From: a virus
Lineage: Duplodnaviria; Caudoviricetes
IMG/VR virus record: IMGVR_UViG_3300029319_000047
Coordinates: 1 to 59,705 of that record
DNA length: 59,705 nucleotides
Strand: one strand, 5' to 3'
The notes under the pieces were generated by a model that saw only the letters and a program-made list of their open reading frames with translations, was not told the DNA's origin and searched no databases. Shown here in pieces: positions 2,814-7,663 of the stretch. The translations under genes and the position numbers were made by a program. How positions within the stretch are numbered: the stretch's first letter is position 1; the number at the start of each line of letters is the position of its first letter.

Positions 2814-3789
2814 TAATCAGTTTCAGCCCATCTAGCAAATCCCCTTTGTTTATCTTGGTGTTGCTAGAATTTATATAGTGTTCAATTAAATCATCACTCA
2901 TTACAGAGGAGACAGATCGCTCATCAGGAACAAAAACTTCCTTATCATCCAGCAAAGGTTTGTACTTGACCTCAACGACAGGGGCTTTGATGCTCTGAGT
3001 TAGTTCAGCGATGTTTTTAATACCATCGTCCAAGGTTCCTACATTCACACGAATCATATTGTAGTCACCAGAGTTCAACCACTCTAGGTTGTCCTCTACC
3101 TTGTCATAGTCTATCACCAAATGTCTTGGTCCATATTCACATGATACTTTTTCTAGTCTAGTATCAGAGAGGACTCCGTAGTAGCAGTCTTTCCCTGCTT
3201 CTCCGAAGTTAGTGGTGTAGGGGGTTCCAAGGACTGAAACATTCCCGTTCCTACCTGCTTTGTGAATGTGCCCAAGGATTGTCGGATTCTTGAAATCGGA
3301 TACAGACAACTCAAAATCAGCGTCTCCAGCAGAATTAAGAACGCCATGATAACCAAAGTGGCCGAAAACAACATAGCCTTCGGGAACATTAGCAAGATAT
3401 TCTTTGATTCTTTCTTCGTCTTCATAGTGCGGGATGAATACCCATTTGTTTTTGTGATCTTCATGATACTCTGTATACACACGAATATTTTTATCTTTGA
3501 GCAGCGACAGTGCAGTAACACCATCATCTGCCTTTGTCACGCTATCATGGTTACCCCGAACAATATGAATCTTATATCCCAAGTAAGAGATGTCGGTCAT
3601 CAACTCTTTCAAAGCAAGCAGGACAGTGGGCTTTGGACTCCTGTGCATCATCAGATCCCCCAGGAATACTAGCTTGTCACAATCTCCGCAGCGATCTTTG
3701 CAAATTTGCATCACAGCATTAAACTGTGCTTGCAGCATACCACGAGGCTTATCCTCGAAGTGTAGGTCTCCAATTACGAGTGTTCGCAT
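2785..3789 (-). CDS. gp47: Recombination nuclease subunit (T4 gp47/SbcD/Mre11-like metallophosphoesterase)
   Basis: GDLH, GD, GNHD and GHIH motifs; adjacent to gp46; likely start is MRTLVIGD at 3789 (track gives 3801). Confidence 0.93.
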   Translation of the reverse strand: MRTLVIGDLHFEDKPRGMLQAQFNAVMQICKDRCGDCDKLVFLGDLMMHRSPKPTVLLALKELMTDISYLGYKIHIVRGNHDSVTKADDGVTALSLLKDKNIRVYTEYHEDHKNKWVFIPHYEDEERIKEYLANVPEGYVVFGHFGYHGVLNSAGDADFELSVSDFKNPTILGHIHKAGRNGNVSVLGTPYTTNFGEAGKDCYYGVLSDTRLEKVSCEYGPRHLVIDYDKVEDNLEWLNSGDYNMIRVNVGTLDDGIKNIAELTQSIKAPVVEVKYKPLLDDKEVFVPDERSVSSVMSDDLIEHYINSSNTKINKGDLLDGLKLINENQQSRNR

Positions 3790-4424
3790 AATGCTTTCCA
3801 ACTGTGAGGGAACATCTCCTGCATCAGGAAACCAATCTCTTGAGCGTACTCCTGCGTCTCTAGCTGCGTGTGCTCTTCGGTCCTGAGCTTCCAGAGGTGA
3901 TGCCAGCCTAGAAGCGTTCCTGTGACCACACAGGTGGTGTACATGGACTGTGGCAGGATGGCACGAGCTTGCTCAGGAGCTACACCTTGGCGAAGCAGAA
4001 CATCGTATCTTTTCATGGCTTCTTCATTAGCTGCGTGGAACTGATTCCAGATGGCATCATAATCCTCTCCCCAGTCCTTACTCTCGCTGCCCTGCTTGAT
4101 ATTGTCTGGACGAGATCTAATATCTTCAGGCATCCAGAACTCAGGCTCACCAGTGATATATCGTCGGCTAACCTCACTCCAAGAAAAACCTACTTGGTGC
4201 TTACCCAACTGACGAAGCACGAAAATAGGGCAAGTGATGCGTAGAGTAGCCACAGGATGACGAAACGGTAGAACATGCTGCTCTCTTGCCAGATAGTTGA
4301 GAAGCTTTGCATCTTTCTCTTGATCAAATTCTTCATGCTGTTTATCGAACGAACATCTAGCTGCATTCACAACTAGTAGATCTCCTTTGGGGGTAAAGTT
4401 TAGAACATCAATATTTGTTTTCAT
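3774..4424 (-). CDS. thyX: Flavin-dependent thymidylate synthase
   Basis: VNAARCSF, H..PF.H, RQLGKHQVGFSWSEVSRRY (variant ThyX motif), EQARAILPQ, LR...HTQ.E. Confidence 0.93.
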   Translation of the reverse strand: MKTNIDVLNFTPKGDLLVVNAARCSFDKQHEEFDQEKDAKLLNYLAREQHVLPFRHPVATLRITCPIFVLRQLGKHQVGFSWSEVSRRYITGEPEFWMPEDIRSRPDNIKQGSESKDWGEDYDAIWNQFHAANEEAMKRYDVLLRQGVAPEQARAILPQSMYTTCVVTGTLLGWHHLWKLRTEEHTQLETQEYAQEIGFLMQEMFPHSWKALCEHS

Positions 4425-5485
4425 AGATTGTATTCCTGTACATCTCCGAATGAAGTGCCCACCTCAATATCAATAGCAAGGGGAACATCAAAATGAATAT
4501 TGAATACCTCTTTGATGGTGGGATAGTTAACCATCTCATCATAGAGGATCTCCACGGTCTTCTGCACTTCTTCTCTCGGACAAATAATCTCGATAGAGTC
4601 GTGAACCGTGGCAACTGGCGTAGCTTCTAATCCTTCTTCCTTGAACCTGCGCGATGCTCCAAGCAGCGAGGTGAGTAGAATATCAGATGCGGAGCTTTGA
4701 ATCGTAAAGTTTAGTCCTTGCCTGAGTGCTCGATTTACGACTTGGCGATCACGGCTATAGACATCAGGAAGATTGCGCTTGCGGCCAAAAATAGTATAAG
4801 CATATCCGTTGCTCTTAATGAAGTTGTTCACATGGTCCATATATGCAAAGATGCCTGGATACACATTCTCGTAGTCTTTGATGATCTTCTCAGCACGCTT
4901 CATGGGGATGTTCATGGTCTCACTGAGATTGAATGCACCTCCACCATAAACGATCAGGAAGGATACAGCCTTGGCGATCTGTCGCTCCTCCTTGCTGATC
5001 TGCTCCTTGTTAAATAGAAGCTTGGCGGTGTAGGTGTGTAGGTCCGCGCCCTGATTGAAGGCTAGTTGCATATTACCCTCTTTGGCAATATGTGACAGGA
5101 CGCGGAGTTCCATCGCTGCATAGTCCGCAGCAATAAATGCCCAACCCTTGGGAGCAGCAAAGAGAGATCGAATGTTGTTCTCAGTCTCCCTGGGCAAGGT
5201 ATGGAAAGATACGCCCATGGCTTTCTGTGCATTGTATGCTGCACAGGACAGGCGACCTGTTGCCGTGCCATCGAAACGAAAATCACAGAACACCTTGTCC
5301 ATGCCATTGTATTCAATGGCTTTCTTGGTGCCCTCGATATAAGTCTTGGTCAGCTTCTCCGACTTGCGAAGATCAAGCAACCCTTTCACGAATTTTCTAG
5401 CATTACGCAGTTCGTCCGTAGACTTGTCTGCGATGACAGACTTGCTGATACGCTTGCCCTCATCCCTGTGCTTCCATTTACTCAC
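4421..5485 (-). CDS. polA: Family A DNA polymerase, C-terminal fragment (thumb base, palm, fingers)
   Basis: TATGRLS, motif A DYAAMELR, motif B RQIAKAVSFLIVYG, IQSSASD, motif C TVHDS; GTG start with GAGGAG about 10 nt upstream. Confidence 0.95.
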   Translation of the reverse strand: MSKWKHRDEGKRISKSVIADKSTDELRNARKFVKGLLDLRKSEKLTKTYIEGTKKAIEYNGMDKVFCDFRFDGTATGRLSCAAYNAQKAMGVSFHTLPRETENNIRSLFAAPKGWAFIAADYAAMELRVLSHIAKEGNMQLAFNQGADLHTYTAKLLFNKEQISKEERQIAKAVSFLIVYGGGAFNLSETMNIPMKRAEKIIKDYENVYPGIFAYMDHVNNFIKSNGYAYTIFGRKRNLPDVYSRDRQVVNRALRQGLNFTIQSSASDILLTSLLGASRRFKEEGLEATPVATVHDSIEIICPREEVQKTVEILYDEMVNYPTIKEVFNIHFDVPLAIDIEVGTSFGDVQEYNL

Positions 5486-5957
5486 GAGTCTGTAGCTCCT
5501 CTTCGATGTGCTCTAGCAGTAGTTTCAGTGTGGGTGCGGATACGGAAGGCTTGCCCTTCCCTGTACGGTCGGGGGGATAAAGGCCCATGCCCTCCTCACG
5601 CAGATAAAGAATCTCAATCAGATCGTTGTTTGACGAGAGGTTGTCAGTATTCTCTACGCCCTCACATAAGTAAAGAGAATCCTCTTCGTTCATGTTCTTG
5701 GAACGCAGTTGCCTACCGACAGCATCCAGCTTGTCCGTGTCCACGATCAGACCATTATACTCCATCTCCGCGAAGGTTTCAAGAGAGGGCATCACGACAT
5801 TCTCAATGAGAGTCATGACGGGATCGCCCTCAAACTTTTCCATGATAAGATCAAACAGCTTCAGAGTGAAGTAAGTATCCATCGCGTTGCCCTCACAGCA
5901 ATCGGATAGATCCATATTGGCCCAGTCAAACTTACTGGGGTTGTCAATCGTAAGCAT
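5478..5957 (-). CDS. polA: Family A DNA polymerase, middle fragment (ExoIII region and thumb)
   Basis: NAMDTYFTLKLF (ExoIII-like), MPSLETFAEMEYNGLIVD, NLSSNNDLIEILY, TGKGKPSVSAPTL (thumb); TAATG overlap with upstream ORF. Confidence 0.85.
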   Translation of the reverse strand: MLTIDNPSKFDWANMDLSDCCEGNAMDTYFTLKLFDLIMEKFEGDPVMTLIENVVMPSLETFAEMEYNGLIVDTDKLDAVGRQLRSKNMNEEDSLYLCEGVENTDNLSSNNDLIEILYLREEGMGLYPPDRTGKGKPSVSAPTLKLLLEHIEEELQTRE

Positions 5958-6979
5958 TACAGATCCTCTAGCTCATTGGCGAAGTAAAGTTTGGTGAGAT
6001 CCATCAGACCCTTGGGCATGTTCTCATCCAGGAGGTGGTGCATGATCTTGGTGTCCCAAACATTCTTAGTATAGATACCATAGTTGATGAGGAACTTGAG
6101 ATCAAACTTGGCATTATGAAAGACCTTCCTGCTCTTAGGATTCTCAAGAATCCGACGCAAACATCCCCACACCTTCGCATAGTCAGGCTGCCCTTTCCTG
6201 AACGGACTGTCCTTATGATCTAGCGGGATGACCCAAGTATTCTCTCGTGTGGTGAGAGCGATGGTCATAATGTCATCCTTGAGGAAGTTCAGTCCAGTGG
6301 TCTCAGTATCTACGGCAATCGTCGCTTCGGAATGCTGAAGCGTTTCTGCGAGAGCTTGTACCTCTCCGATCTCCATGAGGACTTCATAGGAGAAGTCTCC
6401 TCTAGCCTTCTGCCCAAGTACATATTTTTCATATGCATTTGAGATATCTGTCTTGAAGAGCGATAGGTGTCGGGGCTCCTTGATACAAGAATAGGGATGA
6501 AAAATAGGCACAACGGTGCAATTATGCCCAGAATTAGTAGTGTAGTCATAGGACTTTCCTCGTTTGTTTGTGATGCCGCTTTTCTTGATAAGCATCTTCA
6601 TTGCAAGGTTACCGCAAGCGAAAACAAGCTTGGGCTTTACCTTATCAATAGTTGCATCAAGATGCTGGCGGCACAAGTTCATGTTGTTCGGACTCATATC
6701 TGCCTCCTTAACAGAAGGACACTTGACCGAAGCAGCCATGACAAACTTCTCAGGATAACATTCCTTGAAAAGTTGAATCTCCGCTTTCGAGAATGCCTGT
6801 GTAGACCCAAGCTTATACTTAATTGAGTCCGATAAAAACAGGACAGGCGCTGGCGAAAGCTCCTCATAGTCCATCACCGAATGGCAAGGCTTGGACTTCT
6901 CCAGAATGGAGCAGCCATGACACAAAGGATTGTCACCATGGGCTTTGTGGCCTTGGTACAATTTGTCTAAATCAAACAT
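5957..6979 (-). CDS. polA: Family A DNA polymerase, N-terminal fragment: family-4 UDG-like (Fe-S) domain plus 3'-5' exonuclease ExoI/ExoII
   Basis: CHGC...SVKCP...CRQHL...ACGNLA...PIFHP (UDG-F4 pattern), then VDTETTGL (ExoI), FHNAKFD (ExoII), DTKIMHHLLDE. Confidence 0.88.
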   Translation of the reverse strand: MFDLDKLYQGHKAHGDNPLCHGCSILEKSKPCHSVMDYEELSPAPVLFLSDSIKYKLGSTQAFSKAEIQLFKECYPEKFVMAASVKCPSVKEADMSPNNMNLCRQHLDATIDKVKPKLVFACGNLAMKMLIKKSGITNKRGKSYDYTTNSGHNCTVVPIFHPYSCIKEPRHLSLFKTDISNAYEKYVLGQKARGDFSYEVLMEIGEVQALAETLQHSEATIAVDTETTGLNFLKDDIMTIALTTRENTWVIPLDHKDSPFRKGQPDYAKVWGCLRRILENPKSRKVFHNAKFDLKFLINYGIYTKNVWDTKIMHHLLDENMPKGLMDLTKLYFANELEDL

Positions 6980-6993
6980 ACCTATTATAGAGT
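6980..6993. promoter_or_regulatory. Putative bidirectional promoter core CTATTATAG (TATAAT on minus strand) in a 14-bp divergent gap
   Basis: acctattatagagt lies between the ATG of polA-N (-) and the GTG of the gp55-like gene (+). Confidence 0.55.
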
Positions 6994-7335
6994 GTGAAGA
7001 AACATTATATAGATAACACGAAATTCGAAGAGATCATCCTATCATACCAGGAGGATCCTGAAAGCCATGAAGAAGAGCTTGTTTCTTTATTTGATGTCTT
7101 AATACAGAACATCATCGAGACCTTCAAGTTTAATGTAGATCCCGATGACGCGAAGCAAGAGTGTTTCACACTAGTGCTTAGAACTGTTAAGAATTTCAAA
7201 CCAAGAAAAGGCTCGGCGTTCAACTATTTTACAACAGTGATCATAAATAATCTCAAGCTGTTGTATACTCGTGAGAAGAAGTACAATAAGAAGATCGAAA
7301 ATTACATCGACCTTCACAAAGACGATATCATCTAG
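6994..7335 (+). CDS. gp55: Late-transcription sigma factor (T4 gp55-like)
   Basis: HYIDNTKF N-terminus, DDAKQEC, NFKP..GSAFNYFTTVIIN; short sigma-domain-2-only size. Confidence 0.8.
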   Translation: MKKHYIDNTKFEEIILSYQEDPESHEEELVSLFDVLIQNIIETFKFNVDPDDAKQECFTLVLRTVKNFKPRKGSAFNYFTTVIINNLKLLYTREKKYNKKIENYIDLHKDDII

Positions 7336-7663
7336 CCTTCTTCTTCTTTGGCATGAGCGTGTTATAAATCATTGGAAGGTAATCCTCCGAGTGCACGCCC
7401 TTATGATTTAGGTGTACAAGGTGTGGGAGCTTCGTAGTATTGTAGATCACGAAGCTATGTGGCATATAGAAGCTATCAACAATGTACAGGGGCTGACCCT
7501 TGTCACTGTCTCCATACTTCTCCTTGAGCTTTTCTACAAGCTCTTGGCACCACTCGTCCCACAGAGACACGAACAAGATGTTAATACTTTTCTTGTCGCG
7601 CTTGTACGCCTTGATGATCTTGTTCAGATCATTTTCCTTTGATAGGAACTGTAGATTATACAT
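7328..7663 (-). CDS. Thioredoxin-fold protein with a degenerate single-Cys active site
   Basis: ILFVSLWDEWCQEL at the WCxxC position; YIVD and cis-Pro-like KLPHLV. Confidence 0.6.
   Translation of the reverse strand: MYNLQFLSKENDLNKIIKAYKRDKKSINILFVSLWDEWCQELVEKLKEKYGDSDKGQPLYIVDSFYMPHSFVIYNTTKLPHLVHLNHKGVHSEDYLPMIYNTLMPKKKKAR

Follow-up and report, generated by a model that had tools for sequence, protein, structure and literature searches.

Family A DNA polymerases (PolAs) are known from textbooks as single-chain replicases and serve molecular biology as its main tools. Here we analyze a PolA that is encoded in three consecutive open reading frames (ORFs), called o1, o2, and o3, of the IMG/VR virus record IMGVR_UViG_3300029319_000047; the window, as we call the whole stretch of DNA under study, is this record at its length of 59,705 bases. 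Split phage polymerases have been described before. In the T7-like cyanophages S-SBP1 and S-TIP37, PolA is split into an exonuclease gene and a polymerase gene (PMC10201439, PMC12695635), a split reported in a 2023 reclassification as the first in PolAs (PMC10201439). The LUZ24-like Pseudomonas phages have a DNA polymerase part I and part II (PMC3890496), and in the OM43 phages MEP401 and MEP402 a marine PolA occupies two ORFs separated by a small unknown one, an arrangement kept in related metagenomic genomes (PMC10580990). Among T4-related phages, nrdA of Aeh1 and gene 43 of Aeromonas phages (43A/43B, a PolB) are split (PMC2988022). An earlier sequence-only reading of the window had taken split phage polymerases to be usually intron- or intein-related or two-part PolBs, a generalization that needs correction in view of the published two-gene PolAs (PMC10201439, PMC10580990, PMC3890496).

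Based on the analyses below, we are confident that a PolA is encoded in the window as three real cistrons, the products of which most likely reassemble noncovalently into one enzyme. Our data show the structure of the genes, their conservation, the selection on every piece, and that recoding, introns, and inteins are absent; the assembly, the mechanism of translational coupling, and the role of the charged chain ends are what we infer. The three ORFs, their junctions (junction 1 between o1 and o2, junction 2 between o2 and o3), and the related features are listed in Table 1.

Table 1. Coordinates of the three-gene polymerase in the window and of genes found between o1 and o2 at loci of relatives (L numbers denote such loci)
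Feature	Position	Strand	Description
o1	6979..5957	minus	340 aa, ATG start; UDG-like domain and ExoI/ExoII part of the 3'-5' exonuclease
UDG-like (family 4) domain of o1	6473..6760	minus	Pfam PF03167, PDB family 4 UDG matches
ExoI and ExoII part of the proofreading domain, o1	5978..6364	minus	Pfam, PDB, conservation
Junction 1	5955..5969	minus	AGAGGA 5969..5964; o1 stop TAA 5959..5957; o2 ATG 5957..5955; one-base overlap, TAATG 5959..5955
o2	5957..5478	minus	159 aa, ATG start; last exonuclease helix with ExoIII Asp, first thumb helices including DNA-contacting tip, acidic end helix
ExoIII motif GNAMD, o2 residues 23-27	5877..5891	minus	Asp kept, usual Tyr replaced by invariant Gly
Junction 2	5478..5501	minus	GAGGAG 5501..5496; o3 GTG 5485..5483; o2 TAA 5480..5478; 8-nt overlap GTGAGTAA 5485..5478
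Thumb insertion carrying break 2	5381..5537	minus	o2 C-terminal helix (141-159) and o3 N-terminal basic segment (~1-35)
o3	5485..4421	minus	354 aa, GTG start; remaining thumb (helix I), palm, fingers, motifs A/B/C
Full-size genes within the o1-o2 gap of relatives	L088:1782-2783, L090:2961-4004, L115:2974-3975, L082:2811-3770, L129:2228-3190		
Full-size genes within the o1-o2 gap of relatives (further)	L075:2762-3844, L107:2952-4004, L101:3266-3940, L097:3526-4023, L124:3130-3990		

The three products carry the parts of one PolA in order. A single PHROG polymerase profile, phrog_17, was matched colinearly (positions 539-785 by o1, 797-927 by o2, and 931-1237 by o3), and the coordinates and sizes of the ORFs agreed exactly with the sequence-only reading. 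In Pfam, o1 matched a uracil-DNA glycosylase (UDG) family at residues 74-169 (PF03167, E 1.4e-07, 32.1 bits against a cut-off of 24.3) and DNA_pol_A_exo1 at residues 206-334 (PF01612, E 3.4e-22); in the PDB, its UDG-like domain matched the family 4 UDGs 4zbx, 1ui0, and 1vk2, as well as 1l9g, showing that o1 has the UDG fold. Positions 61-380 of the 381 in the DNA_pol_A profile (PF00476) were matched by o3 (E 5.9e-80), which also matched the Bst and Klenow enzymes in the PDB (E 1e-38 to 1e-48), whereas o2 gave zero Pfam matches. When aligned to the Klenow chain in solved structures, o1 residues 219-319 fall on positions 27-128, o2 residues 39-146 on 193-293, and o3 residues 26-321 on 294-584.

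The catalytic motifs are distributed over all three chains. Both ExoI (D-x-E) and ExoII (N-x2-(F/Y)-D) of a DEDDy exonuclease are present in o1. Three acidic residues never vary among 27 sequences: D224 and E226 in the ExoI stretch DTETTGL, and D293 in the ExoII stretch HNAKFD. The motifs A, B, and C that define a family A polymerase domain are in o3. Across 28 sequences, there is no variation at the motif A residues D121 and E126, at R168, K172, and Y180 of motif B, or at H295 and D296 of motif C. The ExoIII motif in o2 departs from the usual Y-x3-D: G23, N24, and D27 are invariant in 50/50 o2 sequences, and G23 and D27 in 8/8 more, whereas four unsplit relatives retain the Tyr (Y-x-x-x-D). 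The division of the exonuclease and polymerase activities of a PolA, usually one polypeptide, among three conserved cistrons is a variant feature that leaves membership of the fold family unaffected. The UDG-like domain of o1 also has four invariant Cys residues (20, 23, 87, and 103; window 6671-6922, minus strand), which we take to be consistent with the Fe-S cluster pattern of family 4 UDGs.

With ExoI and ExoII in o1 and the ExoIII motif in the first long helix modeled for o2 (residues 17-42), the exonuclease fold is severed by break 1, at a point 26 residues ahead of the ExoIII Asp. Break 2 is ~20 residues past a conserved PS(V/T) motif, in an insertion preceding helix I that adds ~37 residues relative to Klenow and to unsplit relatives such as P0121. 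In the o2 model, the C-terminal helix spans residues 141-158, and break 2 lies between this helix and the start of o3; in a structure model of P0098, a naturally fused relative, a helix (149-168) ends at the corresponding site, and a loop modeled with low confidence (169-182) and two more helices follow. The sequence-only reading had placed the breaks inside the proofreading domain and at the thumb tip. The former placement is correct, whereas the latter is slightly imprecise: the DNA-contacting tip remains within o2, and the thumb is cut instead in the insertion before helix I. The acidic end of o2 facing a basic start of o3, also pointed out in that reading, is present, and both ends are conserved.

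The arrangement can now be compared with the described systems. As in S-SBP1 and S-TIP37, the PolA genes are adjacent after fission, with a new stop and start at an overlap, and association of the products was inferred there from structure prediction too. Those cyanophages have two genes (exo and pol) and a recent split within one subgroup, whereas the present phage has three genes and belongs to a large, old clade. The break in the cyanophages is at the exo/pol boundary; here break 1 separates ExoII from ExoIII within the exonuclease fold, a second break cuts the thumb, and there is an N-terminal UDG-like domain. Because break 1 lies between ExoII and ExoIII, the exonuclease site spans two chains. 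The UDG-PolAs of N4-like, SPO1-like, and other phages share this N-terminal family 4 UDG-like domain and a Phe at motif B position B3 (KxxxF in o3), but they are single chains of ~800-900 aa (PMC10201439).

The PolA of LUZ24 (RefSeq NC_010325) is likewise annotated in three pieces: gp25 (exonuclease subunit), gp34 (part II), and gp36, the last of which matches DNA_pol_A at profile positions 295-381. These pieces lie dispersed across 5 kb, interspersed with unrelated genes; one gene between gp34 and gp36 encodes endonuclease VII, and in the LUZ24-like phage UFV-P2, part II is a single 546-aa ORF. A Y-x-x-x-D stretch near the end of gp25 indicates that ExoIII seemingly stays with the exonuclease piece, unlike in the present phage, and hhalign comparison of the o1 and o2 profiles with gp25 and gp34 gave no significant alignment. 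In an OM43 phage (OP830906), the break is between DNA_pol_A profile positions 132 and 154, whereas break 2 described here is at ~60 and break 1 is in the exonuclease domain; no UDG domain was seen in gp13 of this phage, and MEP401 and MEP402 are podovirus-like (Zobellviridae-related), unlike the present myovirus. In the T4-related cases, the pieces of an essential replication enzyme are separately translated chains for which reassembly was demonstrated biochemically, the break sites host inserts as they do in relatives of the window, and a UAAUG-type stop/start overlap has been discussed as translational coupling (PMC2988022). The T4-related enzymes are of other families, and their inserts are homing endonucleases or untranslated spacer, whereas the inserts in relatives of the window, described below, are metabolic or unknown genes and, in some relatives, a PD-(D/E)XK protein.

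None of these split systems is cut between ExoII and ExoIII or in the thumb, and none has three adjacent, overlapped cistrons. A three-gene PolA of the present type was not found in the full-text literature, a search with most subscription journals and supplements outside its scope (the tables of PMC10201439 may list PolAs of this clade as truncated). Thus, a PolA in two genes and the three scattered pieces of LUZ24 were already known, whereas the ExoII/ExoIII cut, the thumb cut, and the three overlapped cistrons appear to be new relative to the literature searched.

When IMG/VR was searched with o3, 67 loci of close relatives were obtained (50-97% o3 identity). At every locus that holds both ends of junction 1 (55/55), o1 has its own stop and o2 its own ATG, and o2 and o3 are separate in 60/60 relatives holding junction 2; seven loci were left out of the latter count, six without flank and L066 because of many frame changes in o1 and o3. 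Over 61 junctions 2 (these 60 and the window), an 8-nucleotide (nt) GTGnnTAA overlap occurs in 52, ATGA in 6, a 26-nt overlap in 2, and 1 is broken (L032, with o2 frameshifted). A second IMG/VR search, for which fused forms were aligned as the query, returned 80 loci of more distant relatives: 62 have o1 and a fused o2o3, 14 have three pieces, and 4 have o3 only; o1 is a separate ORF in each of the 73 loci with both ends (73/73). The conservation of the breakpoints in viral metagenomes, which the sequence-only reading had proposed as a check, is borne out for break 1 in both sets and for break 2 among the close relatives; a large sister group with two genes lacks break 2.

Junction 1 is more variable in length. 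Among the close relatives, the TAATG overlap is found in 26/55 and inserts of 151-1565 nt in 29/55; in the distant set the o1-o2 gap is at or below 0 in 15 loci, 1-93 nt in 10, and 172-3732 nt in 48. Small inserts are Pfam-less ORFs in sense or antisense orientation, and full-size ones include glutamine-synthetase-like (6 scanned), saccharopine-dehydrogenase-like, ThyX, PD-(D/E)XK nuclease, and glycosyltransferase genes (Table 1); none of these junction 1 insert genes is present in the window. One family of antisense ORFs recurs within junction 1 of close relatives, singly or as several tandem copies (L028:3224-3499, L009:2515-3504, and L032:2660-3202, all minus strand, and others). Its members share an N-terminal motif of ~20 residues with GESIW-TY, followed by basic low-complexity tails; the family has no Pfam match and is absent from the window. 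The sequence-only reading had reported no intein, intron, or homing endonuclease between the pieces; in relatives, junction 1 very often carries inserted genes. These data show that junction 1 is, in relatives, a hot spot for auxiliary genes and an ordinary intergenic site; the presence of break 1 throughout the clade fits a single old origin. As a separate observation, junction 2 is interrupted by a gene in two distant three-piece relatives, a 189-aa DUF6445 protein in L145 (4473-5039) and a 75-aa ORF in L135 (4482-4706), and the o2/o3 boundary can therefore accept genes too.

Because o1 and o3 are in the same frame in the window (6979-5485 = 1494 = 3 x 498) and o2 is offset, the sequence-only reading had named two compensating indels as a formal possibility. 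One intact gene would then have been broken in this assembly by sequencing or assembly errors. We consider the chance of this negligible: the same stop/start layout recurs in relatives from many assemblies, some of which have genes between the pieces, and relatives differ in how the o1 frame relates to those of o2 and o3. In addition, a 2361-nt contig from a run of another study spans positions 4300-6112 with 4 mismatches and without gaps, contigs of another study cross each junction gap-free, and indels are listed in none of four runs (two of which, X6 and X7, have same-size contigs and are possibly one data set); the suggested check over the junctions, made at the level of contigs, yielded no fusing indels. 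The compensating-indel artefact was therefore rejected. The short overlaps at both junctions and the zero net shift across the two in the window could reflect programmed frameshifting or bypassing that yields a fused polypeptide, alone or beside separate forms. This is very improbable given that 151-3732 nt of other genes, some of them antisense, separate o1 from o2 in 29/55 close and 48/73 distant relatives, that a gene lies inside junction 2 in two relatives, and that the o2-to-o3 shift is +1 in the 52 junctions of the 8-nt type and -1 in the 6 of the ATGA type. Together, the varying frames and the shifts of opposite sign exclude both compensating indels and a conserved programmed frameshift. 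Joining of the products by split inteins or of the RNAs by trans- or cis-splicing has in its favor that phage polymerase genes frequently host introns and inteins and that the polymerase domain of P0114, an unsplit relative of 1208 aa, contains a large insert. We give it almost no credence, as the Pfam scan of o1, o2, and o3 revealed no intein/Hint or endonuclease domain, the pieces terminate in short stretches of conserved polymerase sequence, there is no spacer between the ORFs in the window, and a stop after o1 and an ATG for o2 are found in every relative. At the gathering score, Rfam found no introns in L001 (window 2945-6946) or in the loci of 9 insert-bearing relatives, in agreement with the sequence-only reading that no intein, intron, or homing endonuclease lies between the ORFs; splicing and intein joining were rejected on these grounds. 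No HNH/GIY-YIG-type endonuclease was found at the breaks in the window, and 14 insert ORFs of relatives are without a Pfam match (10/10, 3/4, and 1/6 in three scans, the other inserts being metabolic genes). The sole recognized nuclease at the breaks, the PD-(D/E)XK protein at junction 1 of some relatives, makes an endonuclease origin of the break possible.

A further alternative is that the pieces never re-form one enzyme, so that, for example, o2 and o3 make an exonuclease-free polymerase and o1 is a separate UDG-like or nuclease protein or inert. The loss of the ExoIII Tyr and the distance of o1 from o2 in many relatives (up to 3.7 kb with genes between) speak for this explanation, but we regard it as unlikely, because the acidic ExoI/ExoII residues of o1 and the ExoIII Asp of o2 are invariant and purifying selection on o1 is as strong as on o3. 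Between the window and L005, the ratio of nonsynonymous to synonymous substitution rates is 0.046 for o1, 0.054 for o2, and 0.024 for o3; in six further pairs synonymous sites are saturated, with a proportion of nonsynonymous differences of 0.11-0.33, except for o1 against L010 (0.061). Purifying selection is strong on each of the three ORFs. In structure models, moreover, the first 45 residues of the o2o3 form fold at low confidence without o1. When the complex of o1 residues 190-340, o2, and o3 was predicted with o2 scored as the partner, the score was 0.92 in three runs. The pass mark was reached by 58/80 solved complexes and 2/110 mismatched pairs; as our own alignments were used for the prediction, these calibration counts are approximate. 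The best control scored 0.71, with o3 replaced and o2 still placed on o1, and controls with o2 swapped for unrelated proteins scored 0.00. The partner predicted local distance difference test value was 88, at least 95% of contacts agreed between runs, and the predicted contacts place the ExoIII helix of o2 on the ExoI/ExoII strands of o1 and the C-terminal helix of o2 on o3 residues 7-40.

To trace the history of the two breaks, we used the relatives of o2 and o3. A search with o2 of 1.84 billion representative proteins gave 172 relatives at E <= 1e-3, and the best 150 of these comprise 82 full-length stand-alone o2 proteins (<=200 aa), 38 fragments, 14 unsplit polymerases, 8 o2-o3 fusions (with the same MLT N terminus), 1 o1-o2 form, and 7 others. 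The nearest unsplit relatives are only 30-35% identical over the o2 region. Searches for related loci with P0057 and P0020 returned none, and one with P0113 returned a single irrelevant locus (L069). A tree from the o2 region alone (113 rows, 159 columns; 4 starred branches) was too weak to place the fused forms and was set aside for one of 99 nonidentical rows, for which 474 columns were taken from the o2 and o3 regions after deletion of those at the junction. In this tree, the split forms group together against unsplit PolAs (Shimodaira-Hasegawa-like approximate likelihood ratio test, 100). Clade A consists of 45 three-piece rows and the fused L070, and clade B of 42 two-piece rows, within which 4 three-piece rows (L128, L129, L137, and L138) are nested with strong support. 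A single clade for all three-piece rows was rejected by the approximately unbiased (AU) test (p-AU 0.00013, at a cost of 131.5 log-likelihood units). The nested three-piece group is cut at the same position as the window and has the ATGA overlap. The span from the PS motif to the TY(I/V) motif is ~42 residues in the fused forms of clade B, ~63 in the nested three-piece group, ~72 in the window, and 83 in the fused L070; both fissions therefore coincide with longer ends, and a long thumb insertion can exist uncut. From these sequence comparisons, we consider it most likely that break 2 arose at least twice at the same site.

Several points weigh against this interpretation or parts of it. The complex prediction suggested by the sequence-only reading passes, but because the pieces resemble many solved single-chain PolAs, the pass is a sign of likeness and not of binding. 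The replacement of Tyr by Gly at ExoIII across the whole split clade suggests that proofreading may be weakened, lost, or altered. The AGAGGA and GAGGAG hexamers upstream of the TAATG and of the 8-nt overlap are located as the sequence-only reading had claimed; these Shine-Dalgarno-like sequences sit in conserved coding sequence, where their conservation is inseparable from protein constraint. An RNA run (X20) contained four short contigs with 90-95% likeness over portions of the three ORFs, which is no demonstration of transcription. The pattern is broken in L032 (3590-3957, o2 in two frames) and L066 (2491-5036, several frame changes in o1 and o3), irregularities that may be assembly error or decay. 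Finally, the group for the AU test was chosen after inspection of the tree, and the apparent second origin of break 2 could instead stem from recombination between polymerase segments.

On balance, we favor a model in which three separately encoded chains assemble into one PolA. In this model, o1 would contribute the UDG-like domain and the ExoI/ExoII half of the exonuclease; o2 the final helix of that fold, which carries the ExoIII Asp, together with the first thumb helices; and o3 the returning thumb helix, palm, and fingers. With the ExoIII Asp in o2 and ExoI and ExoII in o1, the proofreading site would therefore be built from two chains. Balanced amounts of the chains would probably be secured by co-transcription and by the stop/start overlaps (TAATG and GTGAGTAA) acting in termination-reinitiation coupling. 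Break 1 would be old and clade-wide and act as a plain gene boundary that receives other genes, whereas break 2 would reflect later gene fission in the thumb insertion, more than once. After each such fission both new ends would have lengthened, into an acidic helix on o2 and a basic tail on o3, and these charged ends probably help to keep the cut thumb together. A stronger version of the model, which we put forward as speculative and rather doubtful, is that the thumb is a recurrent fission point whose ends have grown into an acidic-helix/basic-tail zipper and that, with the exonuclease cut that is now a landing site for auxiliary genes, the result is a self-assembling three-piece polymerase with a selected subunit structure.

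The setting of the locus is that of a phage genome for which the record gives a completeness estimate of 53%. Almost all genes in the window are on the minus strand, and the polymerase neighbors include ribonucleotide reductase, SbcC, SbcD, ThyX, a RusA-like resolvase, tail tube, and tail sheath genes, which together identify a tailed phage of the myovirus type. The window sequence is present in metagenomes from seawater and estuary, and its source is an uncultured marine myovirus. A blastn search of 50,697 GenBank phage records with the 2.6-kb polymerase region gave zero matches, and tblastn searches of the same records with o3, o2, and the tail sheath gave distant matches only (<=38% identity) and no stand-alone o2; none of these phage records includes a close relative. 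A 130,604-base contig filed as a Prochlorococcus single-cell genome has the three-gene polymerase (L152:2055-5080 and L153). Its o3 and tail sheath are 73% and 52% identical, respectively, to those of the window, and its junction 1 contains an ORF in antisense orientation. This contig is a weak hint to a host or to a co-sorted phage.

Adjoining o1 in the window is a divergent ORF of ~112 aa (6994-7335, plus strand), which has no PHROG match at E <= 1e-05 and whose position is kept in the distant relative L070 (2375-2713, minus strand). A near-consensus sigma-70-like site lies inside o2, upstream of o3 (5754-5782, minus strand; TTGAAA, 17 nt, TATAAT; 11/12). The count of such sites in the polymerase region is not above the shuffled expectation; the promoter and terminator scan of positions 3700-7400 found 7 promoter-like sites where 5.8 were expected, and internal signals are thus unsupported.

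The natural split sites and the natural "zipper" ends may serve the engineering of split polymerases. Metagenomic surveys that use PolA as a marker will read these genes as truncated or exonuclease-less polymerases. For the phages themselves, our results indicate that a large and abundant marine group, widespread in viromes of the sea, cuts PolA inside the proofreading fold, that many members cut the thumb as well, in an apparently recurrent manner that is the most unusual trait of the system, and that the catalytic residues, except for the ExoIII Tyr, are kept under strong selection. The group is a test case for how far essential enzymes tolerate gene fission, and, if the stronger version of the model is true, the subunit structure would be selected, for instance for setting subunit ratios or for module exchange, and not just tolerated.

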